This document shows, piece after piece, positions 28,685-43,751 of a stretch of 64,000 bases of DNA. The DNA lies in NCBI GenBank assembly GCA_041666305.1, contig JBAYHD010000001.1:18149-82148 (forward strand). The letters are read 5' to 3'. This stretch comes from Minisyncoccota bacterium (GTDB lineage Bacteria > Patescibacteriota > Minisyncoccia > Phycocordibacterales > Phycocordibacteraceae). The notes under the pieces were generated by a model. That model did not search any database. It had not been told where the DNA came from and saw nothing but the letters and a program-made list of their open reading frames with translations. How positions within the stretch are numbered: position 1 is the first letter of the stretch; every line of letters starts with the position of its first letter. The translations under genes were made by a program, and so were the position numbers.

Positions 28685-29035
28685 TTATTCAGCCGAGGTA
28701 ACTCCTCGCTTCGAGGTGTTTCCTCGATCCTTATCAGTGACTCCTTGCTTCAAGGTGTCTCCTTGATCCTCATAATCAGCGGATACGGTCTTCGTCGGAT
28801 CAATGGCGAACCGCTTCAGTTTGGAAATAGGACGTGTCGCAACGATGGTCACCGTGTCGCCGACTTTCACGGTGTTGCCGGGATCATGCGCGAGATACTT
28901 CTTGGAGCGCACGAAATACTTCTTGTATTTCGCATTCTTCACGTAGCGGTCCACTTTGACCGTGGCCGTATCTTTCATCGCCGTCTTCACGACGGTGCCG
29001 ACGAACGTTTGGGGGCGGAGGGTTTTTGTTTCCAT
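28685..29035 (-). CDS. rpsQ: 30S ribosomal protein S17 (C-terminal extension)
   Basis: TFVGTVVKTAMKDTATVKVDRYVKNAKYKKYFVRSKKYLAHD. Confidence 0.9.
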   Translation of the reverse strand: METKTLRPQTFVGTVVKTAMKDTATVKVDRYVKNAKYKKYFVRSKKYLAHDPGNTVKVGDTVTIVATRPISKLKRFAIDPTKTVSADYEDQGDTLKQGVTDKDRGNTSKRGVTSAE

Positions 29036-29039
29036 AGTA

Positions 29040-29240
29040 TTATGCGGCCTTCAATTGGCGCGCACGCTGCTCAGTGAGCGCGCGGGCGATGACCTTGCGA
29101 AGCTTGCTCGGCGCATTGCTCTCCTTGGCGCGAGCGCCGGCAGCCGAAAAGCGCTCGGTGCGGAGCGTTTCGCGCGTCTCAATGAGAAGCTTCACGAGCT
29201 CCTGATCAGTCTTTGATGCCATTGTTTCTTTTTTTGTCAT
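29040..29240 (-). CDS. rpmC: 50S ribosomal protein L29
   Basis: 66 aa. KTDQELVKLLIETRETLRTERF. Confidence 0.85.
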   Translation of the reverse strand: MTKKETMASKTDQELVKLLIETRETLRTERFSAAGARAKESNAPSKLRKVIARALTEQRARQLKAA

Positions 29241-29263
29241 AGAAATGAAGGAAAAGCAAGGAA

Positions 29264-29686
29264 TTAGCTTCGAGTGACGATGGTCGTCTTCACCGGGAGC
29301 TTCATGCCCGCTTGTCGCATGTGAGCACGAGCGATCTTCTCGTCGACGCCGTCCATCTCGAAAAGAATGCGGCCCGGGCGCACCTGAAAGACGTAATGTT
29401 TCGGATCGCCCTTTCCGGAACCCATGCCCACTTCCGCCGGCTTTGCGGTCACCGGTCGGTCGGGGAAAATGCGGATCCAGAGCTTGCCGGTCTTCGCCGT
29501 TGCGCGCGTGAGCACCTTGCGAGCCGCTTCGATCTGGTTGCTCGTCACGCGAGCTGCAGTGAGCGCCTTGAGTCCGTACGAACCGAACGCCACAGTGATG
29601 CCGCGCGTATCAGGACGATTGAGATGCTTCTCGCTCATGCGCTGCGTCTGCCACTTGCGATGTTTTACTTTTTTGGGGAACAACAT
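29264..29686 (-). CDS. rplP: 50S ribosomal protein L16
   Basis: MLFPKKVKHRKWQTQRMSEKHLNRPDTRGITVAFGSYGLKAL. ATG 29686 preferred (ORF-track TTG at 29692). Confidence 0.92.
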   Translation of the reverse strand: MLFPKKVKHRKWQTQRMSEKHLNRPDTRGITVAFGSYGLKALTAARVTSNQIEAARKVLTRATAKTGKLWIRIFPDRPVTAKPAEVGMGSGKGDPKHYVFQVRPGRILFEMDGVDEKIARAHMRQAGMKLPVKTTIVTRS

Positions 29687-29696
29687 ATGCAACTAA

Positions 29697-30404
29697 TTAG
29701 CGAGCAGATGCCTCGGGCATGCGTACCGGTGCTTTCTTGTCCTGGTAGACATTGCCGCGGAAGATCCACACCTTGATGCCGATGACGCCGTACGGCAATT
29801 GCGCCTCGTCGTGCGCGAAGTCGATGTCGGCACGGAAGGTTTGGAGCGGAATACGACCTTTCTTTATCTCCTCTTTGCGGCTCATTTCTGCGCCGCCCAA
29901 GCGTCCCGCGAGCGCGATGCGCACACCCTCGACCTCGCGCACGGCGATGACCTTCTCGACGGTCGACTTCAGCACGCGGCGGAACGGCATGCGCTTCTCG
30001 AGCCCTTCCGCGATCATGTACGCAACGACTGCCGCATCCGTTTCCGGTTGGCGGACTTCATTGATATCAAATTTGACCTGTTTGCCGGCGGGAAGCGCAT
30101 TCGGGGAGGCCTTTCGCGCTACTTCAGTCAATTCCGCACGCAGTTTCGCGGCGTTCTCGCCGGAACGGCCGATGACGAGGCCTGGGCGCGCGGTGGAAAG
30201 AATGACGCGCAGTTCACCGGCGGAACGCTCTATCTCGACGCCGCTCGTGTAGGTCCCGCGCAAGCGCTTCTTGAGAAAGCGGCGAATGGTCTCGTCTACC
30301 TTGATGTTGTCGCGATAGACCTTTTTATCGCTGGCGAACCAACGGCTCTTCCAATCCCGGATGATGCCGAGACGATGTGCGTAAGGATGTACGATGTGTG
30401 TCAT
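29697..30404 (-). CDS. rpsC: 30S ribosomal protein S3
   Basis: MTHIVHPYAHRLGIIRDWKSRWFAS...KH domain...GVEISRS. Confidence 0.93.
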   Translation of the reverse strand: MTHIVHPYAHRLGIIRDWKSRWFASDKKVYRDNIKVDETIRRFLKKRLRGTYTSGVEIERSAGELRVILSTARPGLVIGRSGENAAKLRAELTEVARKASPNALPAGKQVKFDINEVRQPETDAAVVAYMIAEGLEKRMPFRRVLKSTVEKVIAVREVEGVRIALAGRLGGAEMSRKEEIKKGRIPLQTFRADIDFAHDEAQLPYGVIGIKVWIFRGNVYQDKKAPVRMPEASAR

Positions 30405-30410
30405 ATAAAT

Positions 30411-30779
30411 TTAATCGTCGAGGGTCTCTACGGTCTCTACGCTCTTTTTTGTCGAGCCTGAAGAAAGCTTCACGATCACTCGGCTCTTGCGGCGGCGTAT
30501 CATGGAAGCGCGACCGAACGCGCGCGGCATGTACTTCTTCAACATGCCGGCATTCTCCACGATGATGGACTGCACGACGAGGTCGTCCACGTTCTCCCCG
30601 CGATCTTTTGCATTTGCGGCCGCGCTCTTGATGAGCTTCGCGATGGTCTCCGAAGCGCGCTTCGGCAAAAATTCAAGCGCTGCGAGCGCAGCCGGCACCT
30701 TCTTGCCTTTCACAAGCTCGGTCACCAGACGGACCTTGCGCGGCGTTTGATTATGGCTCTTGAGTGTTGCGTTTGCCAT
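30411..30779 (-). CDS. rplV: 50S ribosomal protein L22
   Basis: MANATLKSHNQTPRKVRLVTELVKGKKVPAALAALEFLPKRASE. Confidence 0.92.
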   Translation of the reverse strand: MANATLKSHNQTPRKVRLVTELVKGKKVPAALAALEFLPKRASETIAKLIKSAAANAKDRGENVDDLVVQSIIVENAGMLKKYMPRAFGRASMIRRRKSRVIVKLSSGSTKKSVETVETLDD

Positions 30780-30782
30780 ATA

Positions 30783-31133
30783 TTATTTCTTTGCGGGCGC
30801 GGCGGCGGTAGACTCCTTCGCCGACTTCGCAGATGCGATCTCAGCTTCAGCCTTTTTCGCCTCCATCTCCTTCTGCATCTTGCCGCCGTGGCGGAGGAAC
30901 TTCTTGGTCGGGGAAAATTCGCCGAGACGGTGTCCGACCATATCCTCATTCACGAGGACTTCAATATGAGACTTGCCGTTATGTACACCGAAGGTGAAGC
31001 CGATCATTTCTGGGCTTATCTGGCTGCGACGCGCCCAGGTCTTCACCACGCCCGCAGTGGCGGGTTTGAGGTTTTGGACTTTCTTGAGGAGTTTGGCGTC
31101 CACGAAGGGTCCTTTCTTTATCGAGCGTGACAT
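30783..31133 (-). CDS. rpsS: 30S ribosomal protein S19 (Lys/Ala-rich C-terminal extension)
   Basis: [20 protein letters not shown]...[35 protein letters not shown]. Confidence 0.93.
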
Positions 31134-31144
31134 AAAAGTAATGA

Positions 31145-31198
31145 AAAGCCCGCACTGCGGGATAGCTCAAAGATACAGGAAGTCATTTGCAAAGTCAA
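31145..31198 (-). promoter_or_regulatory. putative sigma70-like promoter (TTGACT-N17-TATCTT, minus strand) plus 5'-leader hairpin CUAUCCCGCAGUGCGGGCUUUU 11 nt upstream of the rpsS start codon
   Basis: Hexamers and hairpin read from the minus strand. A near-identical hairpin precedes rpsL at 42604..42626. Confidence 0.35.
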
Positions 31199-31352
31199 AC
31201 GTACCGTTCCAAAACACCCGCATAAATCCTAATCCGTTCCAGAACCTTGACAATTTCCAAAATGTGCACGTATTTTGCATTTCGTCGCGTGTTTGTTTTT
31301 TCTGTGCAATGGAGTACCCTCTACCTCGGACCCATTTGAGGAGGAACCGCAG

Positions 31353-31565
31353 ATGAAAATGAAGTACAAATTGGTATATATGCAGCCCCTGCCGCTGGAA
31401 GACGGCCAGAAACAGCCCAAGTATGAACGGAAGCAGGAGATCTTTGAAGTTGAGCCTGAGGAAGCGGAGGAGAAAAAAAGAAAGTTTCTCGGGGAAGAGT
31501 CGGTGACGTTCGGCTTCGTTACGTTCAGCCGAGAACAAATTACCTTCATGCCCACGCTCGTGTAG
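31353..31565 (+). CDS. small acidic hypothetical protein inserted (convergently) between rpsS and rplB
   Basis: 70 aa, MKMKYKLVYMQPLPLEDGQKQPKYERKQEIFEVEPEEAEEKKRKF. Strong SD gaggagga 8 nt upstream. Own promoter-like TTGACA-N18-TATTTT at 31247-31276. Own terminator downstream. Confidence 0.5.
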   Translation: MKMKYKLVYMQPLPLEDGQKQPKYERKQEIFEVEPEEAEEKKRKFLGEESVTFGFVTFSREQITFMPTLV

Positions 31566-31587
31566 GCAACCCGCCCACCGATGAACG

Positions 31588-31628
31588 AAAAGCCCGCCAA
31601 AACTTAGGCGGGCTTTATTTATTTTCGC
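31588..31628. terminator. bidirectional intrinsic terminator (aagcccgcc-aaaactta-ggcgggctt with T-runs on both strands) between the inserted small gene and the rplB 3' end
   Basis: Inverted repeat with flanking A/T runs. Confidence 0.65.
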
Positions 31629-31634
31629 TAAACG

Positions 31635-32483
31635 TTAGCCCTTCCGCTTCTTGCCGACCTTGCGGCGGGAGACGATGAAGACGTTTGAGTATTTCTTGGG
31701 AGTCCTCGTCTTCTGACCCTTGCCGGTGGGCTTGCCCCATTTGCTCTTGGCGCGGCGCAGACCGCGGCCCTGCTTGCCTTCGCCGCCGCCGTGCGGATGG
31801 TCTACCGGATTCATGGCGGTGCCGCGGACCGTCGGACGAATGCCGAGCCAGCGCGAACGACCAGCCTTGCCGATGACGACAAGATTGTATTCTTCGTTGC
31901 CCACCGCACCAATGGAGGCGTAACAGAGATCGGACACCTTGCGGATCTCGGTCGAAGGAAGCTTGATCTGCGCATAGCCGGCATCATGCGCGACTACCTC
32001 GGCATAATTGCCTGCACTGCGAACGAGAATGGCGCCTGCGGCCGGCTGGAGCTCGATGTTGTACACAAACGTACCGACGGGAATTTTCCCAAGCGGCATG
32101 CGGTTGCCGACCGTGAGCGGTGCATCTTCTCCGACGACGAAGGTGGAGCCGACTTTCATTTCTTTCGGGACGATAACGTAGCGGCGTTCGCCGTCGCGAT
32201 AGAGCGCGAGGCCGATAAATGCCGATCGGAACGGATCATACTCTACCGTTTCTATCTTCGCGGGAATGTTCTTCTTGTTGTAGGAAAAATCCACTTCGCG
32301 GAAACGCTTCTTGTGTCCGCCTCCCTGATGGCGTGTGGTGATGCGGCCGAAGCCGTTTCGCCCACCCTGGCTCGACTTCTTCTTGAGCAAAGGCTTGTGC
32401 GGTGCGTCACCCGAAAGAAGCTCCTTGTACGGAAGCGTGGTCATGTGGCGACGGCTCTTGCTGGTAGGTTTGTAGGTTTTCAT
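31635..32483 (-). CDS. rplB: 50S ribosomal protein L2
   Basis: 282 aa. MKTYKPTSKSRRHMT...GRNGFGRITTRHQGGGHKKRFREVDF... Confidence 0.95.
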   Translation of the reverse strand: MKTYKPTSKSRRHMTTLPYKELLSGDAPHKPLLKKKSSQGGRNGFGRITTRHQGGGHKKRFREVDFSYNKKNIPAKIETVEYDPFRSAFIGLALYRDGERRYVIVPKEMKVGSTFVVGEDAPLTVGNRMPLGKIPVGTFVYNIELQPAAGAILVRSAGNYAEVVAHDAGYAQIKLPSTEIRKVSDLCYASIGAVGNEEYNLVVIGKAGRSRWLGIRPTVRGTAMNPVDHPHGGGEGKQGRGLRRAKSKWGKPTGKGQKTRTPKKYSNVFIVSRRKVGKKRKG

Positions 32484-32489
32484 ACTGGT

Positions 32490-32873
32490 TTATGAGAACT
32501 GGATGGTGTCGCCAGCATTGAGATACACGTACGCTTTTCGGCGCGATGCACGATGGCCGACACCGCGCTTGGTGCGCATCGTCTTCGGTTTGCCCGGAAG
32601 ATTCACGATACGTATCTTGCGAGGTTCCACTTTGTAGATCTCCTTAATGGCGCTCGCGATGGAAGCCTTCGTTGCGCGCTCGGATACGTCGAATGTGTAA
32701 ATGCCCTTCTCGGTCACGATAAGCGCCTTTTCGGAGAACCACGGTGCGCGGATGATCTCGTGTGCGACACCGTTTGCGGTGGCCGTGGAGCGCGTGCGAT
32801 GACGGACAACAACTTTGTCCCTCTTAGCTTTCGCTTTCGTGCTCGTATTCTTAGTGGTGCCGAAGAGTGCCAT
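32490..32873 (-). CDS. rplW: 50S ribosomal protein L23 (N-terminal extension)
   Basis: APWFSEKALIVTEKGIYTFDVSERATKASIASAIKEIYKVEPRKIRIVN. Confidence 0.88.
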   Translation of the reverse strand: MALFGTTKNTSTKAKAKRDKVVVRHRTRSTATANGVAHEIIRAPWFSEKALIVTEKGIYTFDVSERATKASIASAIKEIYKVEPRKIRIVNLPGKPKTMRTKRGVGHRASRRKAYVYLNAGDTIQFS

Positions 32874-32879
32874 AAATAA

Positions 32880-33614
32880 TTATTTAGATTTTGCGCGGGT
32901 AGCGAGCATTTTGAATGCCGCTTCCGGATTCTCTATGACGAGATACTTGTGACTCATCACTTCGACCGGATTCAAGCTCCGCATTTCCTCGGTCATCACG
33001 TTGCCGAAATTGTGGAAACTCTTTATCGCATTCACGTTGTACGAAGCGAGCGCGAAGAGCGCAGCGTTCTTTTTCTTCGTCACAAGCTGTCCCGCATCCG
33101 CACCCTTCGCAAGATTTGCGAGCGAAGTTTTTGCGATCGCTGTTTTCGGAGCGGCAAAACTGAATTGGTCGACAAAAATGATCTCGTCGTCTTTCGCTTT
33201 GCGCGAGAGCACCGAGAGCAAAGCACCGATGCGCATCTTCTTGTTGATTTTCTCGCTGTAGTCGCGCGTGGAACGCGGACCGAACGTGATGCCGCCGTGG
33301 CGCCAGATCGGCGAGCGTGTGGAGCTGTGGCGCGCCTGGCCGGTACCCTTCTGTGCCCACGGCTTCTTGCCGCCGCCCGAGACTTCCGAGCGGTCTTTGG
33401 TGTGTGCTCGGTTCTGGCGAAGGTTCGCCTGCATGCCGGTGGTCACCTGGTGCACGAGGTCAGATCGCCATGGCACGCCGAAGATGCTCTCCGGAAGAGA
33501 AATGGTCCCGACTTTCTTGCCGTCCATGGAGAAGATAGGCGCCTCGATAGCCACGTACGCTGCCTTTGCTTTCTTTGTTACTTTCTTCGCAACCTTTTTT
33601 TCAGGAGTAGTCAT
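32880..33614 (-). CDS. rplD: 50S ribosomal protein L4
   Basis: 244 aa. ...TKDRSEVSGGGKKPWAQKGTGQARHSSTRSPIWRHGGITFGP. Confidence 0.93.
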   Translation of the reverse strand: MTTPEKKVAKKVTKKAKAAYVAIEAPIFSMDGKKVGTISLPESIFGVPWRSDLVHQVTTGMQANLRQNRAHTKDRSEVSGGGKKPWAQKGTGQARHSSTRSPIWRHGGITFGPRSTRDYSEKINKKMRIGALLSVLSRKAKDDEIIFVDQFSFAAPKTAIAKTSLANLAKGADAGQLVTKKKNAALFALASYNVNAIKSFHNFGNVMTEEMRSLNPVEVMSHKYLVIENPEAAFKMLATRAKSK

Positions 33615-33624
33615 GGTATTAAAA

Positions 33625-34239
33625 TTATGCGGAGACTACTTCAAGCAATGTGCCGCGGCGACCCGGAACGGCGCCGCTGACGATGATCTTTCCCTCTTTC
33701 GCATCGACCACGAGCACCTTGAGGTTCGTCACCGTGACGCGATCAGAACCCATGCGACCGGCCATGCGGATGCCCTTTGCGACACGACCGCCCGCGCGAC
33801 CACCCGAACCGCCGATAGAGCCCGGAGAGCGCTCGGTGTGCTTCTGGCCGTGAGAACGCGGGCCGCCGTGGAAGCCATGGCGCTTCACCACGCCGGCGAA
33901 GCCCTTGCCTTTCGTGATGCCGGAAACTTGCACGACGTCGCCGACCGCAAAAATTGATGCATCGATCGTATCGCCAACGGCGGCAGCGTTGTCAGTGCGG
34001 AATTCGCGAATTGCTTCGTAGCCCTTGCCTTTCGTGTGTCCGAGGACTGGCTTAGAAATATTCTTCGTGCGGCGTTCGCCCTGGCCGACCTGAACCGCCG
34101 AATATTTATCCTTGCCGTCCGCCATCTTCACTTGCGTGACGGTAATCGGCTCGGCCAAGAGAACAGTCCCCGCATGCGCAAGGCCATCCGCCGTAAAGAT
34201 ACGGGTCATTTTTTCTTTCTTAGCGAGGATGAATTTCAT
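33625..34239 (-). CDS. rplC: 50S ribosomal protein L3
   Basis: MKFILAKKEKMTRIFTADG...GFAGVVKRHGFHGGPRSHGQKHTERSPGSIG. ATG 34239 preferred. Confidence 0.93.
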   Translation of the reverse strand: MKFILAKKEKMTRIFTADGLAHAGTVLLAEPITVTQVKMADGKDKYSAVQVGQGERRTKNISKPVLGHTKGKGYEAIREFRTDNAAAVGDTIDASIFAVGDVVQVSGITKGKGFAGVVKRHGFHGGPRSHGQKHTERSPGSIGGSGGRAGGRVAKGIRMAGRMGSDRVTVTNLKVLVVDAKEGKIIVSGAVPGRRGTLLEVVSA

Positions 34240-34367
34240 TGTGTATGCAAATCGCGCCACAGCAATCGCTGGGCGCGATTTGCTGGAGGTCCCGCGGGGG
34301 ACATAGCGATTTGAGCACTCTACACGAGCCTCTTAAAAGATGCAAATCACTATGCTAGGCTTACGTA

Positions 34368-34592
34368 ATGGAAGATGGCCCGGAAAACAGAGCCCTCAGA
34401 AGCAAAAATGCGATTGATTTAGAAATTATGGGCTTGAGAATCAAGCTACAGCAACTCGAAACCAAAACCGCAATTGGGGGGTCTACTGAAATAAAAGCTT
34501 TGATTGAATCTGCAGGCAAAGACCAAGAGGTTCAAAGAATAGAAACGAAAATAGAGGAATTACGGCAGGAAAAGTCATCCTCAAAAGCGTAA
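34368..34592 (+). CDS. small coiled-coil hypothetical protein (rplC-rpsJ insertion)
   Basis: 74 aa, heptad-like LEIMGLRIKLQQLETK...IETKIEELRQEK. No SD, so weak call. Confidence 0.3.
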   Translation: MEDGPENRALRSKNAIDLEIMGLRIKLQQLETKTAIGGSTEIKALIESAGKDQEVQRIETKIEELRQEKSSSKA

Positions 34593-34642
34593 GGTCGCGA
34601 GGTGTGGCTCGCGACCCGTAATTCTGTTGATATGGTGCGGTG

Positions 34643-34987
34643 CTACAAGTAGCCTTGCTGATGGCAGTGGACTGCGGCAGTGCTGTAAAGCGTCTGAAAA
34701 AACTGGGTGTACCACTCGTTCCCAAATCGCTTGGCAACGCGGAGGCCGTGCCGAGTACGCCGCCGAACAATCTTCCAGTCCTCAGGTGTAACACGAGTGC
34801 GCTCCGTAAAGCCGTTAACCTGCTCGTGCAATTCGCGCAGACGTAATTCCACCCGAGCCTCGATAGGAACAGTTCTCTCGGCTTGGCGCATGATCCACGC
34901 CATCTCCTGCGGACCAACCCGCCCCGTACATCCTGGTTTGCGCAGTGGCTTAATGCCAAGCGCCGCTAGATCCAAGTTTTTGCTCAT
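34643..34987 (-). CDS. hypothetical protein (rplC-rpsJ insertion)
   Basis: 114 aa from ATG 34987 (MSKNLDLAALGIKPLRKPGCTGRVGPQEMAWIMRQAERTVPIEARVELRLRELHEQ...). SD aggag 7 nt upstream. Confidence 0.45.
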   Translation of the reverse strand: MSKNLDLAALGIKPLRKPGCTGRVGPQEMAWIMRQAERTVPIEARVELRLRELHEQVNGFTERTRVTPEDWKIVRRRTRHGLRVAKRFGNEWYTQFFQTLYSTAAVHCHQQGYL

Positions 34988-35032
34988 TTCATACTCCTCG
35001 TTATGTAACCAGGCAGAGTAAAGCACATTCTC

Positions 35033-35072
35033 AAAAACACACAACCGCCTCTGCGGGCGGTTGTGTGTTTCT
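35033..35072 (-). terminator. intrinsic terminator, hairpin family ACACACAACCGCC-loop-GGCGGTTGTGTGT (minus strand followed by UUUUUGA); downstream of PaaX-like paralog 2
   Basis: Perfect 13-bp stem. A near-identical copy is at 36117..36156. Confidence 0.65.
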
Positions 35073-35088
35073 TGCTAATTACCATCGT

Positions 35089-35126
35089 GTTCGTTAATTC
35101 TAACGACCGTTGGAGATAACGAACAT
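35089..35126. repeat. 38-bp palindromic element GTTCGTTAATTCTAACGACCGTTGGAGATAACGAACAT (termini GTTCGTTA/TAACGAAC), copy A, 3'-flank of paralog 2
   Basis: Shares conserved termini and centre (28/38 identity) with copy B at 35745..35782. Confidence 0.75.
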
Positions 35127-35129
35127 TGG

Positions 35130-35744
35130 TTACTCTACTAGCGGGAGATTAAAATGCTTGCGGAGTTTTTCGTCGTGTTCTATCTCATCAGCGACTATAC
35201 AGAGAATACCGTGACCAAGTTTTAGATGCGTGCGCAAAAAGACAAGGAGTTTTTCACACGGATATGGATATGCCCATGCACTGTTCTGTACCTTAACGAA
35301 GCCGATTTCTCTGAGCGTCTCTCGTAATTCGTCACGCACTTCCCGTCGCCGCTCCCACACATCAAACATGATAATCCGCCACTTCTGATCCCATTTCTTC
35401 TGATTTTTAGGCCGCACTTCTTCGCGCTCTGCAAGTTCTTCGGCAATCTTCATCCCCTTCTCTGTTAGCTCTATATGAAAGCCGTTTTGCCCCTTCACTC
35501 GCCGAAATATACCCTGTTTAATCAGCTCAGAATATTTTTGACTCACGCGCCTCTTAAGACGAGGCGAAGGCCCAATGACTTTCTCTACATATTTGAGTAG
35601 TCTCACTGCGTTCGGCGCCATAACTATCAGACCTACTCCAATCGTGAGATACGCCGAGAGCAAAACAGCATTTTTAATTTTGGTGCGCTTTGTCCCGCGC
35701 TGAACCCTCTCCTCAATATTCAAGAGCCGTTTCTTTTTCTCCAT
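35130..35744 (-). CDS. PaaX-like wHTH regulator family protein with Cas2-like motif (paralog 2)
   Basis: 204 aa. GQNGFHIELTEKGMKIAEEL (wHTH wing), KKWDQKWRIIMFDVWERRREVRDELRETLREIGFVKVQNSAWAYPYPCE, C-terminal ...DEKLRKHFNLPL shared with paralog 1. Clearly homologous to 26796..27377. Confidence 0.55.
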   Translation of the reverse strand: MEKKKRLLNIEERVQRGTKRTKIKNAVLLSAYLTIGVGLIVMAPNAVRLLKYVEKVIGPSPRLKRRVSQKYSELIKQGIFRRVKGQNGFHIELTEKGMKIAEELAEREEVRPKNQKKWDQKWRIIMFDVWERRREVRDELRETLREIGFVKVQNSAWAYPYPCEKLLVFLRTHLKLGHGILCIVADEIEHDEKLRKHFNLPLVE

Positions 35745-35782
35745 GTTCGTTATTGTACACGGTCGTTGGACTTAACGAACAT
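35745..35782. repeat. 38-bp palindromic element copy B (GTTCGTTATTGTACACGGTCGTTGGACTTAACGAACAT), abutting the start codon of paralog 2
   Basis: Direct comparison with 35089..35126. Confidence 0.75.
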
Positions 35783-35890
35783 AGGATGTGTACAAATATG
35801 GGAGCGGAGCGTGGCCTCCTCTGCCCTACCCCGCCCAAAGATGCAAGAAAACAACCGGGGTCGCGAGTGATTTGCTCGCAACCCCGTATT

Positions 35891-36082
35891 TCAGCTGCAT
35901 CCGTGCGGCGAAGGCCGACCAATCGGATGTTTCTCGATTTCATCACCCATTTCTGCCCAGTAACAATCGGCATGCACCGCAACCTTTTGACCTTCGACGA
36001 CAATGTACTCCAACTCCCCTTCAATATGTGGTCCGTCGATTAAATCATGACATATGCCGCAATAAACCGAACTTAGATCCAT
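35891..36082 (-). CDS. small Cys/His-rich (zinc-ribbon-like) hypothetical protein
   Basis: 63 aa from ATG 36082: MDLSSVYCGICHDLIDGPHIEGELEYIVVEGQKVAVHADCYWAEM. SD aaggaggg upstream. Confidence 0.45.
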   Translation of the reverse strand: MDLSSVYCGICHDLIDGPHIEGELEYIVVEGQKVAVHADCYWAEMGDEIEKHPIGRPSPHGCS

Positions 36083-36116
36083 GATTAAGCCCTCCTTTCT
36101 GCAGGCGAGTCTAGCA

Positions 36117-36156
36117 TAAAACACACAACCGCCCGTGAGGGCGGTTGTGTGTTTCT
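36117..36156 (-). terminator. second copy of the ACACACAACCGCCC-gtga-GGGCGGTTGTGTGT hairpin terminator, ~140 nt downstream of rpsJ
   Basis: Near-identical to 35033..35072, including flanking TTCTTG(G/C). Confidence 0.65.
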
Positions 36157-36299
36157 TGGCTGTCTTTGGAATTCTAGCGGTTTCAAAACTACTGTAGATG
36201 CTAGGCGCGACGAGAGAATTTCTGGAGACGTACTCAAATGTACGGCGGAAGAAGTTCTCGAAGTCGCAACAACGCAGATGCAGTAGTTTTGGAAGCGCG

Positions 36300-36704
36300 C
36301 TACACCATTTTCACATCTATCGTCACTCCTGACGGAAGGTTGAGGTTCGTGAGGGCCTCGATGACCTTCGGCGAGGGGTTCATGATGTCGATGAGGCGCT
36401 TATGAATGCGCATCTCGAACTGTTCGCGTGCGTCTTTATGGACGAAGGTCGAACGGTTCACGGTCCAGCGCTTTATCTCGGTGGGAAGCGGAACCGGGCC
36501 CACGACGATCGCATCAAAGCGAGCGGCGGTGTCCATGATCTGCTTCACCGAGAGGTCCAATATCTTGTGCTCATAGGCACGGACGCGGATGCGGAGCTTG
36601 TGCTCCACCGGAGCCGACGCTACAGCTTTCTTCGCTGCGGCTTTCGCCCGCGGCGCTTTGGGCGCCGCGACTTTCTTTGCTTTAGGTTTCGCCGCTGTTG
36701 CCAT
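36300..36704 (-). CDS. rpsJ: 30S ribosomal protein S10 (with ~30-aa Ala/Lys-rich N-terminal extension)
   Basis: KLRIRVRAYEHKILDLSVKQIMDTAARFDAIVVGPVPLPTEIKRWTVNRSTFVHKDAREQFEMRIHKRLIDI. Confidence 0.92.
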   Translation of the reverse strand: MATAAKPKAKKVAAPKAPRAKAAAKKAVASAPVEHKLRIRVRAYEHKILDLSVKQIMDTAARFDAIVVGPVPLPTEIKRWTVNRSTFVHKDAREQFEMRIHKRLIDIMNPSPKVIEALTNLNLPSGVTIDVKMV

Positions 36705-36723
36705 ATGAGTAGTAGATGAGTGC

Positions 36724-37923
<1,200 letters not shown>

Positions 37924-37966
37924 AACGGATAATTTAGGTGATTAATTCACGAATAAATATCCGACG

Positions 37967-38009
37967 CCTGCCCCGTAGCCAAGCATTCCGATGCTTGTGG
38001 TACTGGGGT
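37967..38009. repeat. imperfect long hairpin element CCTGCCCCGTAGCCAAGCATTCCGATGCTTGTGGTACTGGGGT in the tuf 5' region; second copy (with a 72-bp internal insertion) at 61621..61738
   Basis: Direct sequence comparison. Contains AAGCAT-TCCG-ATGCTT inner hairpin. Confidence 0.6.
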
Positions 38010-38183
38010 GAGTCGGAACAAACTCCAAAGCTTGCCGACTCACAAAAGCAGACAAGCCAAAGAGCGACGCCAAGATGCGTTAGGTGAAAGATAGCACAAA
38101 TGCCAGAGAAAGGTCAAGAAATCATTAGGGAAAACAAAAACGGGAGACAGAGTCTCCCGTGGTGGTGCGGCGCCGGTATCGAC

Positions 38184-38417
38184 TTACGCTTTCTTCTCGG
38201 CTTTCTTCTCTTTGGCCTTCTTTGCCTTGTTTTTCTTGACCTTGGCTTTGGCGGTCTTAGCTTTGGCAGCCGGTTTGGCGGCATCGGGCTTGGCCTTGGT
38301 GTCGGCAGCGGCGAGCATCGTCTGGCCGGACTGGTTGGTCGGCGAGGCAGCAATGGCCGGCAGCGCGAGAGCGAAACACGCAATCATCGAACAGAACAAA
38401 AGGGCTATCTTTTTCAC
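38184..38417 (-). CDS. small secreted Lys/Ala-rich protein (hypothetical)
   Basis: 77 aa, GTG start with strong SD (gaaggagg). Signal peptide MKKIALLFCSMIACFALALPAIAA, then KAKPDAAKPAAKAKTAKAKVKKNKAKKAKEKKAEKKA. Confidence 0.5.
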   Translation of the reverse strand: MKKIALLFCSMIACFALALPAIAASPTNQSGQTMLAAADTKAKPDAAKPAAKAKTAKAKVKKNKAKKAKEKKAEKKA

Positions 38418-38496
38418 CTGAACCTCCTTCGGAAACCCAAGGATATGGGTGCTTCTGACACTACTCCCCTTTTATGTATTGTAAAGAACCCAACGT

Positions 38497-38565
38497 GCAC
38501 AACAGCCGCCCTCCGGGCGGCTGTTGTGCCGAAAGTTAGGACACCCGGTGTCCTAACTTTTTACT
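38497..38565. terminator. two tandem perfect hairpins (gcacaacagccgccc-tcc-gggcggctgttgtgc; aagttaggacac-ccgg-gtgtcctaactt+tttt)
   Basis: Inverted repeats read directly. The second has a + strand T-tract. Confidence 0.45.
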
Positions 38566-38602
38566 TGCGAGATGCGATGATGTCGGCGGCAACGTTGTTC
38601 GG

Positions 38603-38750
38603 TGGTGTGCAACACCAGGTGTTGAACAAAATTATTTGCGGGATGCGATGATGTCGGCCGCGACGTTGGTGGGGACCACGTCGTAGTGATTGAACTCCAT
38701 CGTCATACTGCCGCGGCCTTCGGTCATGGAGCGAAGCGTGGTGGCGTAGA
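38603..38750 (-). repeat. degenerate duplicate (~80% identity) of the fusA 3' end plus its terminator hairpin (original 39200..39350); includes an in-frame remnant of the last ~39 codons and stop; an additional nested partial copy at 38567..38602
   Basis: Direct alignment: ...gtgtgcaacaccaggtgttgaacaaaattatttgcggg(a/a)(t/g)gcgatgatgtc... occurs at both loci. Confidence 0.8.
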
Positions 38751-38785
38751 AAGTCCGCTTTCTTGACGTGATATTATAAAGTTCA

Positions 38786-39145
38786 ATGAATATCCTCATC
38801 GCAGTTCTCGGACTGTTTGCAATCGATTACTATGGGTTGCGTTCATATTTGAGTCAGCGTGGCAAACCTACGGAAGGTTTAACAAAAAATATCTTACTAG
38901 CCTATAAAGACACCGCCGCCTGCGGGATTGCAGTTTTGCTTATCTCACTACCATTCTTCCTCGTTGATACTGGTGCCCCACGACCCTATGCCGAGCTGCT
39001 TTCGATGGCTCTTTGGGGTGCGGGATTCGTCCTACCTCTACCCTTCTTCATAAAAAAGAGAGTTAATATTCCTTGGTTGACTGCGATTGGTTTTATCTTT
39101 GGTCCATTGGTTTTTATTTTGCCTGCACTGTACGCAACCTTTTAA
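38786..39145 (+). CDS. small 3-4-TM membrane protein (hypothetical), convergent cargo between fusA and its duplicated 3' end
   Basis: 119 aa. [26 protein letters not shown]...[37 protein letters not shown]. Confidence 0.45.
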
Positions 39146-39229
39146 ACAACTGCAGCAAACTCAAACGGAAAGCGGCCGCCCTCTCGGGTGGCCGTTGTAC
39201 TGGTGTGCAACACCAGGTGTTGAACAAAA

Positions 39230-41377
39230 TTATTTGCGGGAGGCGATGATGTCCGCGGCCACATTAGTAGGAACTACATCGTAGTGGTCAAACTCCATCG
39301 TCATCGAGCCGCGGCCTTCGGTCATGGAGCGGAGAGTGGTGGTGTAGCCGAACATTTCGGAAAGCGGAACTTTCGCCTTCACGACTTTGTTGAGACCTCG
39401 TTCTTCCATTCCCTCGATTTGTCCGCGTTTGCCGGAGAGATTACCCGTGATGTCGCCCATGAATTGGTCCGGAATAATGACTTCCACTCGCATAATCGGC
39501 TCAAGGATGACGGCCTTTGCTTTGCTTGCCGCTTCTTGAAATGCCATGGATGCCGCGATTTTGAAAGCGATTTCTGAGGAGTCCACATCGTGGTATGAGC
39601 CGTCGTAAAGGTCGACTGAGATATCCACCATCGGGAAGCCGGCGAGGAAGCCTCGCGCCATGGCCTCGCGGAGACCTTTCTCGATTGGCGAGATGAATTC
39701 CTGAGGAATGACGCCGCCTTTGATGTTATTGATGAATTCGAAATGGTCTTCGCGCGTAATATTTTTCGCGACCTTCTTCTCCGAATCTACCGGTTCCATC
39801 TTCTTCATCTTGATCTTCACATGACCGTACTGGCCGCGGCCGCCGGTCTGCTTGATGTACTTCCCTTCCGCTTCCGAAGAACCCATAATCGTTTCGCGAT
39901 ATGCCACCTGCGGCTTTCCCACATCCGCAACGACGTTGAACTCGCGCTTCATGCGGTCCACGAGGATTTCGAGGTGCAATTCGCCCATGCCGGAAATAAT
40001 CGTTTCATTCGTCTCTTCGTCGGTCTTGATGCGGAACGTCGGGTCTTCGTCGGAAAGTTTGCGGAGCGCAATGCCCATTTTCTCCTGGTCGGCTTTGGTC
40101 TTGGGCTCGATGCGGAGCGACACCACCGGTTCAGGGAATTTAATTTCCTCGAGCACGATAGGATTTGCCTCATCACAGAGCGTGTGCGAAGTTTTCGTAT
40201 CTTTGAGACCCACTGCGGCCGCGATTTCTCCGGTAAACACCTGTGCGACTTCTTCGCGCTTGTCGGCTTGCAAGCGAACGATGCGGCCGACGCGTTCCTT
40301 GGAACCCGTCGTTGAGTTGTATACATACGAGCCGGCGGTGAGTGTGCCTGAATACACACGGAAGAAAGTCAGCGCGCCGACAAACGGATCGGTCTGGAGT
40401 TTGAATGCCATCGCGCAAAACGGTTCATCATCTGACGCATGACGCTCAACCGGTTCATTCGTCTTCGGGTTTATGCCGGTGACGGGCTTGAGGTCCAAGG
40501 GCGACGGGAGATAATCCACGACCGCATCAAGTACGAGCTGTGCGCCTTTATTCTTAAGGGCAGAACCGGTGTACACCGGGAACACTTCGTTCGCGATGAC
40601 CGCCTTGCGCAAAATCGCCTTCAACTCATCGATGTTCGGCTCTTTGCCTTCGAGATACGCACCCATCGCCGCATCGTCTTGCTCCACAATGCGCTCAATG
40701 AGTTCGGCGCGGTACTTCTTCGCGTCTTCAAGGAGATTCGCGGGAATCTCGCCCTCTACCACCTCTTCGCCCATGTTGCCGGTAAAGGTGTATGCCTTCA
40801 TCGTGAGCAGATCCACGCAACCTTCATGCTGTGCCTCTTCTCCGATAGGAATTTGCATGCGAATGGCCTTCGGCGAGAGCCGGTCCAAAATGCTTGCATA
40901 GGAACGCTCAAATGACGCTCCTATGCGATCCAATTTATTGATGAAGCAAACACGCGGCACCGCGGCTTCGTCGGCATAACGCCAGTTTGTTTCGGACTGC
41001 GGTTCCACGCCGGCCACGCCGTCAAAGACGACAACCGCACCGTCGAGCACGCGCATGGAGCGCTTCACTTCTGCCGTGAAGTCGATGTGTCCGGGGGTGT
41101 CGATGATATTGAAACGATATTTCTTGGAGATATCCTTCTTGTCTTTCTCAATCGTTTTTGTCCAGAAGCAGGTAATGGCGGCGGCGGTGATGGTGATGCC
41201 GCGCTCGCGCTCTTGTTCCATCCAGTCGGTGGTCGTTTCTCCTTCGTGCACTTCACCGATCTTGTGTTGGGAACCTGTATAGAAAAGGATGCGCTCGCTG
41301 ACAGTGGTCTTGCCGGCGTCAATGTGCGCAATGATGCCGAAGTTCCTGACCTTCTCGAGTGGATAGTCTCTGTTCAT
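39230..41377 (-). CDS. fusA: elongation factor G
   Basis: 715 aa. NFGIIAHIDAGKTTVSERILFYTG... Confidence 0.97.
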   Translation of the reverse strand: MNRDYPLEKVRNFGIIAHIDAGKTTVSERILFYTGSQHKIGEVHEGETTTDWMEQERERGITITAAAITCFWTKTIEKDKKDISKKYRFNIIDTPGHIDFTAEVKRSMRVLDGAVVVFDGVAGVEPQSETNWRYADEAAVPRVCFINKLDRIGASFERSYASILDRLSPKAIRMQIPIGEEAQHEGCVDLLTMKAYTFTGNMGEEVVEGEIPANLLEDAKKYRAELIERIVEQDDAAMGAYLEGKEPNIDELKAILRKAVIANEVFPVYTGSALKNKGAQLVLDAVVDYLPSPLDLKPVTGINPKTNEPVERHASDDEPFCAMAFKLQTDPFVGALTFFRVYSGTLTAGSYVYNSTTGSKERVGRIVRLQADKREEVAQVFTGEIAAAVGLKDTKTSHTLCDEANPIVLEEIKFPEPVVSLRIEPKTKADQEKMGIALRKLSDEDPTFRIKTDEETNETIISGMGELHLEILVDRMKREFNVVADVGKPQVAYRETIMGSSEAEGKYIKQTGGRGQYGHVKIKMKKMEPVDSEKKVAKNITREDHFEFINNIKGGVIPQEFISPIEKGLREAMARGFLAGFPMVDISVDLYDGSYHDVDSSEIAFKIAASMAFQEAASKAKAVILEPIMRVEVIIPDQFMGDITGNLSGKRGQIEGMEERGLNKVVKAKVPLSEMFGYTTTLRSMTEGRGSMTMEFDHYDVVPTNVAADIIASRK

Positions 41378-41487
41378 ATGTTAGTAGTAAGCAGTTGCAG
41401 TGAGCAGGAGCAGTAAGTGGTAAAAAGAAAACGCGCGAGGGCGTTAAGTGAAGAATAGCTGAAATGCAGGAAAATGCAAAGAGGCAG

Positions 41488-41679
41488 CTAGCCCATTAAG
41501 AAACAAACTGCACCTACTACAAGTATAATCGGGATATAAAATACAATCTCTAACCCTCCGCCTAAACCTAAATCGTTGATAAAATAGCCACCACCTGGAA
41601 TTACAAAACCAATTAGGACGTAGAGAGAAACGATTAGCAACAGAAAAGCGCCGAATATTTTCAATCCTGACCATTTCAT
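41488..41679 (-). CDS. tiny 2-TM membrane protein (hypothetical) between rpsG and fusA
   Basis: 63 aa, MKWSGLKIFGAFLLLIVSLYVLIGFVIPGGGYFINDLGLGGGLEIVFYIPIILVVGAVCFLMG. Confidence 0.35.
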   Translation of the reverse strand: MKWSGLKIFGAFLLLIVSLYVLIGFVIPGGGYFINDLGLGGGLEIVFYIPIILVVGAVCFLMG

Positions 41680-41711
41680 ATACGTAATGCTAGCACACAG
41701 CTAGCGAAGAA

Positions 41712-42176
41712 CTACCACGCGAAGTGGGCGAAGGCCTTGTTGGCGTCGGCCATGCGATGCATCTCGTCCTTCTTTTTAATCGCGTCGCCCTCATTCTTTG
41801 AGGCGAGGAGGAGTTCGGCGGCGAGTTTCTCCGCCATCGGCTTTCCTTTCTTGTTGCGTGCGGCGTTAATGAGCCAGCGGAACGAGAGCGCGAGGCGGCG
41901 GTTCTGTGGAACTTCGCGAGGCACCTGATAGTTGGCACCGCCGACACGGCGAGAACGGACTTCCATCAAAGGCGACACGTTGCGGAGCGCGGATTCAAAT
42001 GTCTCCAGAGGATTTGCGCCTCCCTTCTCAATCTCAGCGAGAGCATCGTACACCACGGCGCGTGCGGTATCTTTCTTGCCGCTCCACATCACTGCATTGA
42101 TAAAACGCGTCAAAGTTTCCGAACCGTATTTGAGGTCGGGACGCCATTCGCGCTTCTTTTTAAGAGGTCGGCGCAT
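41712..42176 (-). CDS. rpsG: 30S ribosomal protein S7
   Basis: 154 aa. MRRPLKKKREWRPDLKYGSETLTRFINAVMWSGKKDTARAVVYDALAEI. Confidence 0.93.
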   Translation of the reverse strand: MRRPLKKKREWRPDLKYGSETLTRFINAVMWSGKKDTARAVVYDALAEIEKGGANPLETFESALRNVSPLMEVRSRRVGGANYQVPREVPQNRRLALSFRWLINAARNKKGKPMAEKLAAELLLASKNEGDAIKKKDEMHRMADANKAFAHFAW

Positions 42177-42178
42177 AC

Positions 42179-42595
42179 TTATTTAGCGGCAGACGGACGC
42201 TTCGCGCCGTAGCGAGAGCGCGCGGAGCGGCGCTTCTCCAATCCGCTCGTGTCGAGCTTGCCGCGTACTATCGTGTATTGCACGCCGATGTCCTTCACGC
42301 GGCCGCCGCGGAGCATCACCACCGAGTGTTCCTGGAGGTTGTGGCCTTCGCCCGGGATGTAGGCGGTGACTTCCATGCCGTTGGTGAGGCGGACGCGGGC
42401 GATCTTACGGATGGCGGAGTTCGGTTTGCGAGGGGTCTTCGTAGTCACCTTAGTGCAGACGCCGCGCTTGAAAGGCGACGGATAGAAGGTCGGACGATTT
42501 TTGAGCGCATTAAAACCGCGTGCCAGTGCCGGCACTTTTGATTTCGACGCTCTCGTCTTGCGTCCCTTCTTGGACAGCTGATTGATGGTGGACAT
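42179..42595 (-). CDS. rpsL: 30S ribosomal protein S12
   Basis: 138 aa. [36 protein letters not shown]...[10 protein letters not shown]. Confidence 0.95.
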
Positions 42596-42603
42596 TTAGT
42601 TAG

Positions 42604-42660
42604 AAAACCCGCGAACTGCGGGATAGGGACACTATATATAAGAGTGCGCTGGAATGCAAC
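42604..42660 (-). promoter_or_regulatory. putative promoter (TTGCAT-N15-TATATA on minus strand) and 5'-leader hairpin CUAUCCCGCAGUUCGCGGGUUUU 8 nt upstream of the rpsL start
   Basis: Same hairpin motif as upstream of rpsS (31145..31166). Confidence 0.35.
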
Positions 42661-42695
42661 TAGTATGATATATCATACCAGTTGCTGACGACGCA

Positions 42696-43742
42696 TTACT
42701 CAATCGGCTCGCGATAGGGGTCGGCGGAGTATGGCTTCACCGGAGCTTGAGGAACTTTTGGCGCGGAAGGAGCCGGTCGGGATGGAGGAATGATGTCCGG
42801 CGGAGGCATCGCGCCCGGAAGATTTCGCGGTGGAGGCAGCACCGTTCGCAATGCTTGCTGTAACGGAGTTTCTGCGGAAGAACTCGGCGTTTTGTTCTTA
42901 TTCAGCTCGATATGCGGTTCCTCATGATCTTCAAGCAATTTGCTGCCGTCCATCGGTTTCGAAAATGACTGCGCATTCGGTCGCAAATTGGCTCCGACCG
43001 CACTTGGAAGCACTACTTTGGGCGGAAGCGGGGCAATGTTGGAAACCGGCGGACGTGGCGGCACCGGTATTTGTTGCACAGGCTTCGGTTCTGTATGTAA
43101 CACATTAACGGAGCCCGGTTGCGCTCCGACCGGCGGCTGCGCCGGAATCGGTTTGATTGGTTGTTGCGACAATGCCGGAACCGGTGCATTCAAAGCCGAC
43201 GCCGCAACGGGCACTTGTGCAGACGGTCGTGGAGGAATGGGGCGCACCGCGGCACTTTCTGCAGATCGCGGAGATGGCGGCAATTTATTTTCCAAATGAA
43301 AATGGCTTGTGGACTGTCCCGCGCCGGCTGCCGGCGCGGGTATCGGTGCAACAACCGGCTGGCGGGCAGGCGCGGCTGGCGGGATCTGTGGCGGTTTCTT
43401 TCCGAGCGCTTCCACGCCTTTCCGCATTTCCTCCCGCAAGGGCGAAAAAACCTGCGCATTCACATCTTGCACGATACTGCTGACCGTTTGCTGATTGAGA
43501 TTCGCTTCGGTAACAAGCGCTTGATTGAATTCTTCAGGATTTTCGATGCCCATCAAGAGCAACATTATTTCTCGTTCGAGGACTCCTCCTTGGTCAACAC
43601 GAAGACCATATTTAGCCGTCAAACTTTGAGCAACTGCCGTGTACTTACCTTGCGCGAGATAACTCCGCACCGGCGGCGGCAAAATTTGCATCACTTGCTT
43701 GATGCTCTGTTCGAGTGTCGGTTCCGGTTTTGTTTGGTCCAT
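42696..43742 (-). CDS. proline-rich hypothetical protein (structured ~100-aa N-domain plus long Pro/Ala/Gln low-complexity tail)
   Basis: 348 aa. MDQTKPEPTLEQSIKQVMQILPPPVRSYLAQGKYTAVAQSLTAKYGL..., then PQIPPAAPARQPVVAPIPAPAAG... Last gene of a 4-gene minus-strand operon. Confidence 0.45.
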   Translation of the reverse strand: MDQTKPEPTLEQSIKQVMQILPPPVRSYLAQGKYTAVAQSLTAKYGLRVDQGGVLEREIMLLLMGIENPEEFNQALVTEANLNQQTVSSIVQDVNAQVFSPLREEMRKGVEALGKKPPQIPPAAPARQPVVAPIPAPAAGAGQSTSHFHLENKLPPSPRSAESAAVRPIPPRPSAQVPVAASALNAPVPALSQQPIKPIPAQPPVGAQPGSVNVLHTEPKPVQQIPVPPRPPVSNIAPLPPKVVLPSAVGANLRPNAQSFSKPMDGSKLLEDHEEPHIELNKNKTPSSSAETPLQQALRTVLPPPRNLPGAMPPPDIIPPSRPAPSAPKVPQAPVKPYSADPYREPIE

Positions 43743-43751
43743 ATGATCTCT

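Follow-up and report, generated by a model that had tools for sequence, protein, structure and literature searches.

A hairpin and U-run directly downstream of the promoters of rpsL, rpsS, fusA and rpsN in a Kaiserbacteria-like genome

Leader hairpins of rpsL and rpsS

The stretch of DNA analysed here (64,000 nucleotides (nt), hereafter the window) covers positions 18,149 to 82,148 of contig JBAYHD010000001.1 (assembly GCA_041666305.1). It has a GC content of 54% and belongs to a Kaiserbacteria-like metagenome-assembled genome (MAG) of the Paceibacterota; several close relatives are named Kaiserbacteria, and the L3 protein encoded in the window is identical to NCBI MFA6519269.1. The elements of interest are two copies of a short GC hairpin followed by a U-run in the leaders of rpsL and rpsS. 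The identity of these genes, proposed in a first-pass annotation of the sequence, was borne out by Pfam (S12 and S19). The features at and around the two sites are listed below.

42654..42659, minus strand: −35-like hexamer TTGCAT of rpsL, read from the sequence
42631..42636, minus strand: −10-like hexamer TATAGT of rpsL, 17-nt spacer from the −35 hexamer, read from the sequence
42626..42604, minus strand: leader motif copy A, CTATCCCGCAGTTCGCGGGTTTT, with a gap of 8 nt to the rpsL ATG at 42595
42623..42626, minus strand: CTAT, a pyrimidine-purine-pyrimidine (Y-R-Y) context of the 'start element' type; predicted rpsL transcription start at A 42624, the 7th nt past the −10 hexamer
42608..42622, minus strand: rpsL leader hairpin CCCGC-AGUUC-GCGGG, fold −8.9 kcal/mol, terminator-like in the terminator scan
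42596..42607, minus strand: rpsL U-run (42607..42604) and G-free linker UUUUCUAACUAA to the ATG, unpaired in the minimum-energy fold
42179..42595, minus strand: rpsL (S12), Pfam PF00164
41712..42176, minus strand: rpsG (S7), directly after rpsL, Pfam PF00177
31589..31616, bidirectional: strong terminator after rplB (L2), fold −19.6 kcal/mol
31353..31565, plus strand: small gene with a good Shine-Dalgarno (SD) site, opposite in strand to rpsS, between the L2 terminator and rpsS
31170..31198, minus strand: rpsS promoter TTGACT (31198..31193)-N17-TATCTT (31175..31170), from the sequence and a promoter scan
31165..31144, minus strand: leader motif copy B, CTATCCCGCAGTGCGGGCTTTT, with a gap of 10 nt to the rpsS ATG at 31133
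31149..31161, minus strand: rpsS leader hairpin CCCGC-AGU-GCGGG, fold −7.5 kcal/mol, covariance-model score 46.3 bits
31134..31148, minus strand: C, U-run (31147..31144) and linker CAUUACUUUU to the rpsS ATG, unpaired in the fold
30783..31133, minus strand: rpsS (S19), Pfam PF00203, heading the unit S19-L22-S3-L16-L29-S17-L14-L24-L5

Both copies noticed in the first-pass annotation were present on the minus strand. The coordinates given there for the rpsL copy (42604..42626) and its distance of 8 nt to the start codon were right, whereas the rpsS copy had been placed one base off (31145..31166) and its gap counted as 11 rather than 10 nt. Likewise, the sigma70-like pair proposed for rpsS was retained, but that proposed for rpsL (N15-TATATA) was replaced by the better register TTGCAT-N17-TATAGT. 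As the S10 operon is cut by the terminator after L2 and by the opposite-strand gene, rpsS needs a promoter of its own.

The order of elements was the same at both genes: the −10 box, six nt, A-U and then the stem. The stems are all-GC and 5 base pairs (bp) long, the loops measure 5 nt (rpsL) and 3 nt (rpsS), and UUUU with a G-free linker lies behind each. The rpsS transcription start was predicted at A 31163, and at either gene the 7th nt past the −10 box stands in a T-A-T context. Judging by this promoter geometry, both transcripts would begin AUCCCGC..., with two unpaired nt.

The pattern CTATCCCGCAG-(1-3 nt)-GCGGG-(0-1 nt)-TTTT had two matches in the window, where none is expected by chance, and a gapped 20-base pattern spanning both copies had two matches as against none in 100 shuffles. 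The bare 11-mer with mismatches occurred at chance level across the window, without enrichment; the significance therefore lies in the full hairpin, the U-run and the position taken jointly. Extra copies returned by the mismatch search at 38920 and 50074 were rejected as near-matches that are not hairpins. Folding of one sequence at a time gave z-scores of −0.5 to −2.8 for individual hairpins. Because such short hairpins cannot reach significant z-scores, these folds were not counted as evidence, which is comparative. A resemblance to 16S rRNA (CCCGCA...GCGG near position 930) was dropped as too weak.

The same design at fusA and rpsN

By a mechanical scan of the window for a promoter followed, after 4-10 nt, by a hairpin and a U-run, fusA and rpsN were found in addition to rpsL and rpsS. 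The further copies at translation genes that the first-pass annotation had proposed to look for thus exist, both within the window and as orthologous leaders in relatives. The design shared by the four sites consists of a sigma70-like promoter with a 17-nt spacer, 6-8 nt, a hairpin of 3-7 bp, a U-run, a G-poor unstructured linker and the ATG; hairpin folds ranged from −4.7 to −8.9 kcal/mol over the four leaders.

41422..41479, minus strand: fusA module with TTGCAT (41479..41474), TATTCT (41457..41452), hairpin AACGC-CCUCGC-GCGUU (41445..41430) and U-run UUCUUUUU (41429..41422)
26201..26259, minus strand: rpsN (S14, Pfam) module with TTGACG (26259..26254), TACATT (26236..26231), hairpin GCUC-UUCG-GGGC (26222..26211) and U-run UUUAUUUUUU (26210..26201)
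38067..38117, minus strand: tuf promoter TTGACC-N18-TATCTT (38117..38088) and weak 5' hairpin ACGC-AUCUUG-GCGU (38080..38067), with no clean U-run

The segment between −10 box and stem is TCACTT at fusA and ACTTGC-AC at rpsN. The rpsN ATG lies at 26198, and that of fusA at 41377, 52 nt beyond its hairpin. A hairpin of this kind lies no more than 20 nt from the start codon in just three of the window's 67 genes, those for S12, S19 and S14.

Two further translation units have leaders of another kind. The tuf leader is structured and about 165 nt long (37924..38081, minus strand; z = −3.9), and its start is conserved in the related loci L098, L099, L102 and L104. For rplC, too, a separate promoter (TTGCAT-N17-TAGAGT) is present, and the leader behind it spans about 70 nt and contains two hairpins (34240..34330, minus strand; −37.7 kcal/mol, z = −5.7); the true ATG of the gene is probably at 34239. 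This leader is near-invariant in L098, L101 and L104 and has another form in L099, L100, L102 and L103; no covariation was found among four aligned sequences, in which the sequence is invariant. It is a candidate ribosomal-protein regulatory leader of the L4/L3 type.

Conservation in related genomes

The leaders were compared in a set of 45, drawn from the window and 22 related Paceibacterota loci. Relatives were represented by cluster-sized loci (8-20 kb), including eight whole-cluster loci (L098-L105) of relatives with 83-88% L3 identity, which carry the same junction promoters and hairpins as the window. At rpsL, TTGCAT or TTGCGT occurs in the same register in L003, L008-L010, L014, L019, L023, L098, L100, L102, L104 and L105, and the promoter stretch TATATAGT is kept in relatives. 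The rpsS promoter is conserved in L001, L015, L098-L100 and L102-L105, and L101 has TTGACG/TACATT in the same register. Modules of the fusA type with different stems were present in L012, L020, L032, L098, L100, L102, L103 and L105, while the rpsN module is conserved in L001, L098-L100 and L102-L105, its 3' arm alternating between GGGC and GAGC (U.G to U-A). By their spacers and by hexamers conserved per gene, the predicted promoters agree with the sigma70 type, for which a spacer of 16-18 nt is expected.

The spacing within the leaders varied little. The promoter spacer was 17 nt in 37 of the 45 leaders. Counted from the −10 box, the first paired base came after 8 nt in 32 leaders and after 6-7 nt in another 11, a distance thus fixed in 43. 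Together with the conserved hexamers, this strongly supports the earlier idea that the hairpin lies just downstream of the promoter and would occupy the 5' terminus of the mRNA. Around the 7th nt past the −10 box, the triplet with this nt in the middle was Y-R-N (N, any nt) in 42 leaders, including TAT in 21. With the start predicted at this 7th nt, 41 of the 44 distinct leaders have at most two unpaired 5' nt, compared to 35% of shuffled leaders. The U-run follows the stem after 0-1 nt in every one of the 45, and the rest of each leader beyond the hairpin is unstructured. Moreover, the hairpin tracks the promoter: in L105 the rpsN hairpin stays beside the −10 box though a repeat insertion puts the ATG 91 nt away, and in L104, with 14 nt between S7 and fusA, no hairpin is found there.

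Loops were different in almost every genome (13 kinds at rpsL and 11 at rpsS). Stems at rpsL varied by lineage among CCCGC/GCGGG (window, L098, L100, L102), GACCC/GGGUC (L103-L105), CCCC/GGGG and AUAGUCC/GGGCUAU. Because L103 and L105 keep CCCGC at rpsS and have GACCC at rpsL, the sequence identity of the rpsL and rpsS hairpins is subclade-specific. The shared sequence from which the first-pass annotation started is real, but it is one version of a wider design, whose fusA and rpsN copies had been missed. In L021, rpsS has its own promoter and a hairpin (AAGCUC/GAGCUU) unlike that at rpsL. The table of stem types across lineages was used in place of a formal covariation count on alignment A1, which would have been uninformative because CCCGC-type stems are invariant in it.

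When 600 kb of sequence, comprising the window and related loci, was searched with a covariance model of the CCCGC type, the 21 strong matches (E <= 4e-5) were without exception rpsL or rpsS leaders; a distribution over random intergenic positions, which would have spoken against the motif, was thus not seen. The mechanical scan of the eight 20-kb relatives (L098-L105) returned 27 matches, 23 of them heading rpsL, rpsS, rpsN or fusA and none at cargo genes. Among 185,579 species genomes the exact pattern had 17 matches, 11 of which were in Patescibacteria-type MAGs (one labelled only 'bacterium'); seven of the pattern matches lay upstream of rpsL and two upstream of rpsS. The exact motif CTATCCCGCAGAGCGGGATTTT was also seen at L002:1150-1400 and in L005 (reverse strand, about 1900-2100), in a conserved non-coding stretch that contains several GC hairpins and precedes a divergent gene; no Rfam match was found for this stretch. 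These copies were set aside as a separate or chance case, since the region is unrelated and does not precede a ribosomal-protein gene.

An unbiased sample of 80 metagenomic rpsL loci was also inspected. Firmicutes and similar bacteria in the sample have normal GGAGG sites. In about 10 of the 28 CPR-like (candidate phyla radiation) loci without an SD site, a hairpin and U-run again come after a promoter, with stems of quite different sequence (CCCC/GGGG, AUAGUCC/GGGCUAU, GUC-UUCG-GAC, ACUGACG/UGUCAGU), and some of the sampled loci look leaderless. Three Firmicutes-like, SD-using loci (L036, L039, L048) have rpsL promoters of the form TTGACA-N17-TATAAT/TATACT and, within 6-9 nt of these, a hairpin that opens a long leader; hairpins near the 5' end of rpsL mRNA may hence be more widespread.

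Function of the leader hairpin

The fixed distance to the −10 box, the 0-2 unpaired nt, the free loops, the replaceable stems, the G.U pairs, the variable half-site spacing and the independence from the ATG together point to selection for an RNA hairpin at the very 5' terminus of the transcript. We consider that there is about an even chance that it acts as a protective 5'-terminal stem-loop on an SD-less leader. RppH and 5'-end-dependent ribonucleases (RNases) need 2-3 unpaired 5' nt, and 5' stem-loops stabilise mRNA (PMC3997798). This rule, the position of the hairpin at the predicted 5' end and the RNase J encoded in the window are the reasons for favouring protection. Two beta-CASP proteins were found, as the first-pass annotation had stated, one of them in the RNase J family.

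5988..7934, plus strand: RNase J family ribonuclease (5'-end-dependent exonuclease/endonuclease), NCBIfam TIGR00649, 461 bits against a cutoff of 400
16712..18100, minus strand: second beta-CASP protein

Under the protective reading, the motif would form the first ~20 nt of the rpsL and rpsS mRNAs. Transcription of rpsL, rpsS, fusA and rpsN would start at a purine 7 nt past the sigma70-type −10 box; a Y-R-Y 'start element' and a dominant −10-to-start distance are known from bacterial promoters (PMC12641261), and the predicted position fits both. The nascent RNA would fold at once into a small GC hairpin, leaving 0-2 unpaired 5' nt, and the U-run and a G-poor unstructured stretch of 10-16 nt would lead to the AUG without a Shine-Dalgarno site. 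The hairpin would most likely hide the 5' end from decay by a putative RppH-type pyrophosphohydrolase and RNase J, and ribosomes would most likely land on the open U-rich linker. In some bacteria, T-tracts in the initially transcribed region are a known promoter-linked feature (PMC12641261). The hairpin had also been thought to occlude the SD region; this was not upheld, as it ends 12-15 nt before the ATG, upstream of the SD position. Sequence, position, conservation, the exchange of one pairing stem for another and the encoded RNase J are observed, whereas the transcription start, the stabilising effect and the role of the U-run are inferred.

Several points weigh against protection. The transcription start rests on a prediction from promoter geometry, and the stems are short (3-5 bp, −3 to −10 kcal/mol). 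The U-run abuts the stem universally, yet a pure 5'-protection model does not require it. Other promoters of the window have no hairpin: there is none at groES, and rpsO and several other genes look leaderless, so the hairpin is not a general feature of the genome. Furthermore, the leader counts overstate independence, because the 45 leaders are phylogenetically related and comprise about 16 distinct stem types.

The first-pass annotation had offered three functions, of which the 5'-terminal stabiliser fits best and the attenuator is a live rival, while the ribosomal-protein operator is disfavoured. Attenuation, which we regard as possible although clearly less probable than protection, would make the hairpin a weak promoter-proximal intrinsic terminator at which some polymerases stop at about +22 to +28; the stopped fraction would be set by nucleoside triphosphate (NTP) supply or NusA/NusG, tuning translation-machinery genes, and read-through from upstream cargo could be stopped as well. 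The canonical terminator shape with its ever-present U-run, the flagging of the sites by a terminator scan and the finding of the design only at translation genes, which need growth-rate control, are in keeping with this, as is the lack of any other terminator between the upstream operon and the hairpin in L100 (L2|S19) and in L098, L099, L100 and L103 (L5|S14). However, the hairpins (−4.7 to −8.9 kcal/mol, 3-5 bp) are much weaker than the real terminators of the window (−15 to −28 kcal/mol, 9-17 bp), and the U-runs of rpsL and rpsS have only 4 U. No anti-terminator is possible: the rest of the leader is unstructured, and there is no upstream RNA to form one, because the hairpin starts at the predicted +1 to +3. 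Nor does an attenuator need such exact placement, and the hairpin is kept even where a strong terminator lies just upstream (rpsS in the window; fusA in L102 and L105). Protection and attenuation are not mutually exclusive. We tentatively propose, as a rather unlikely combination of the two, that in the sampled Kaiserbacteria-like relatives the element could be a dual-purpose 'punctuation mark', a weak and possibly NTP-sensitive terminator for transcripts reading in and a protective 5' cap for those begun at the promoter 8 nt upstream. If true, each junction of the ribosomal-protein supercluster would be transcriptionally self-contained, which would explain why mobile cargo is repeatedly taken up at the same five junctions without harm to ribosome synthesis, and ribosome production could be coupled to nucleotide supply in a minimal bacterium.

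The remaining explanations concern binding by a protein, or no function at all. A translational operator, to which a ribosomal protein encoded downstream (e.g. S7) would bind to repress its own operon, with the rpsS leader as an operator copy, is improbable. It would suit the position of the hairpin, 12-16 nt ahead of the start codon in ribosomal-protein operons, the conservation of the CCCGC/GCGGG stem with the flanking UAU and UUUUCAUUAC in many genomes, and the close resemblance of the window rpsS leader to the L008 rpsL leader. The loops, on the other hand, vary freely and therefore offer no conserved recognition surface, and the sister genomes L103 and L105 each have a GACCC stem at rpsL but a CCCGC stem at rpsS, the stems of these two genes being unlike in L021 as well. 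Unrelated hairpins are found in the same design at rpsN and at fusA, the latter of which encodes no ribosomal protein; the hairpin remains by the promoter where the ATG is distant, and no Rfam ribosomal-protein leader matched. An operator at the DNA level, where a dimeric repressor would bind the inverted repeat at +3 to +17 and block the polymerase, is still less probable, despite the location of the repeat directly downstream of the promoter and a half-site sequence conserved in many genomes. Half-site spacing ranges from 3 to 7 nt among orthologous sites (3 versus 5 within the window), which is unlike a dimer on DNA; stems are replaced by unrelated pairing sequences, and the G.U pairs (U.G in rpsN and L101 rpsS) make sense only in RNA. 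Least credible, and largely refuted, is a chance resemblance, a terminator of the upstream gene or a dispersed repeat of the repetitive extragenic palindrome (REP) or miniature inverted-repeat transposable element (MITE) kind. The unenriched 11-mer and the L002 and L005 matches in a hairpin-rich non-coding region could be read that way, but the full pattern is absent from shuffles and conserved at orthologous positions in more than 20 genomes, the rpsS copy follows an opposite-strand gene and the separate L2 terminator, and the covariance model found no dispersed copies in 600 kb.

Comparison with known leaders and significance

In the leaders described here, a hairpin would lie 0-2 nt from the predicted transcript start, with an open stretch for ribosome binding behind it; in this they resemble the leaders of Escherichia coli ompA and papA and Bacillus subtilis aprE (the last with a 5' stem-loop and a ribosome-binding site). 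The organism also encodes a 5'-end-dependent RNase (RNase J), as expected for stem-loops of the ompA and aprE type. Compared to these, the present stems are much shorter (3-7 bp), the U-run always abuts, the leader is 24-34 nt long without an SD site, and the hairpin stands at a fixed promoter distance, so far only at translation-gene units; the stabilising effect is a prediction. The E. coli S10 leader attenuator, with its L4- and NusA-dependent termination, and the ribosomal leaders of Rfam share a terminator-shaped hairpin or conserved RNA element upstream of ribosomal-protein genes, but here a single 5-bp hairpin with a variable loop and no protein-binding architecture serves four units, including fusA, in one design. 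With canonical intrinsic (Rho-independent) terminators, the element shares the GC-rich stem and immediate U-run; it is, however, 2-4 times less stable than the real ones of the window and stands at the predicted +1 to +3, pointing into a highly expressed operon, and not behind a gene.

No Rfam family matched at the gathering threshold anywhere in the window, with only noise at E up to 10 around both sites. The ribosomal-protein leader study of Eckert and Weinberg (2020; PMC7247131) makes no mention of S12 or S19 leaders, CPR or Parcubacteria, and no description of such a leader was found in the literature on ribosomal leaders, CPR, Parcubacteria and Kaiserbacteria. The element is thus a candidate new RNA motif, absent from Rfam. 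Control of gene expression is almost unknown in uncultured Patescibacteria (CPR), and many Parcubacteria have no anti-Shine-Dalgarno motif. The conserved promoter, predicted start, 5' hairpin and open U-rich leader of 10-16 nt offer a testable picture for their most highly expressed genes. Should the hairpin prove to stabilise mRNA or attenuate transcription, ribosome synthesis in a reduced genome would have a simple means of regulation, and the promoter-hairpin module could serve as an expression cassette in future genetics of these organisms.

Translation initiation and upstream genes

The SD core (GGAG/GAGG/AGGA) precedes only 7 of the 67 genes in the window. The first-pass annotation had noted that rpsL and rpsS have no SD site, which is true of both but not specific to them: it is a genome-wide property rather than one of hairpin-led genes. 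The anti-SD motif was detected in only 48% of Parcubacteria 16S rRNAs (PMC9297842). In many genes a −10-like hexamer lies 6-7 nt ahead of the ATG (e.g. those starting at 54700, 58372, 12746, 35744 and 60597), which suggests, on the strength of these boxes, widespread leaderless mRNAs. The near-absence of SD sites and these boxes recall SD-less and leaderless initiation in Parcubacteria, whereas the four hairpin-led units differ from leaderless genes by a defined leader of 24-68 nt (24-34 nt for rpsL, rpsS and rpsN), with the hairpin first. The few strong GGAGG sites were mostly on small open reading frames (ORFs) in inserted cargo (26637, 31353, 36081), consistent with a foreign origin. No tRNA genes were found in the window.

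Upstream of rpsL lie three large genes (42696..47730, minus strand) of 592, 742 and 348 amino acids (aa) without Pfam domains, which are not rpoB or rpoC. The 592- and 742-aa genes have signal-peptide-like N-termini, and the trio also precedes rpsL in L098, L104 and L105. A near-perfect AT-rich palindrome of 30 nt (GCAACTGGTATGATAT/ATCATACTAGTTGC, 42656..42685) lies past the stop codon of the 348-aa gene, next to the rpsL −35 hexamer, which it overlaps. It was not conserved in relatives and may act as an operator or as a terminator that lacks a U-run.

Cargo insertions at the cluster junctions

The normally contiguous str/S10/spc cluster (window 26198..42176) is split into independently promoted modules. 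It is broken at five junctions, S7|fusA, fusA|tuf, S10|L3, L2|S19 and L5|S14, giving the separately promoted units S12-S7, EF-G, EF-Tu-S10, L3-L2, S19-L5 and S14 onward. The same five are interrupted in the window and in L098-L105, and the inserted cargo differs by genome; all other junctions measure at most a few tens of nt, the sole exception being a 195-nt gap before L16 in L103. Encoded in the inserts are PaaX_M proteins, MNT/HepT and Gp49/HTH toxin-antitoxin pairs, IS1595 and rve transposases, DUF3298 and small hypothetical proteins. The five junctions look like hot spots for the insertion of mobile cargo.

Two PaaX_M genes of the window are flanked by direct repeats. Perfect 39-nt repeats (TATCCCCATTTTGACCCGGTCGGGTCATTATTGGGATAC, with a palindrome inside) at 26736-26774 and 27379-27417 lie around a PaaX_M gene with a Cas2-like domain (26796..27377, plus strand), and the segment 26736..27417 looks like a small mobile cassette. 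Repeats of 41 nt (93% identical) at 35034-35074 and 36118-36158, each of which is a strong terminator hairpin (−24 to −28 kcal/mol), enclose the second gene (35130..35744, minus strand) and a small ORF with an SD site. PaaX_M genes were also present in inserts of L099, L102 and L104.

Within the fusA-tuf insert, a duplicate of the 3' end of fusA and its flank (39201-39347) lies at 38603-38749 (87% identity), with a further, partial copy at 38561-38602, and the L099 insert contains an ORF for a 31-aa EFG_C fragment. These copies suggest that integrative elements may target and duplicate the fusA 3' end. A short repeated element with GAGCGAGCG motifs and a long hairpin occurs in L105 both in the rpsN leader (L105:16580-16674) and upstream of tuf (L105:8080-8196), and looks MITE-like.

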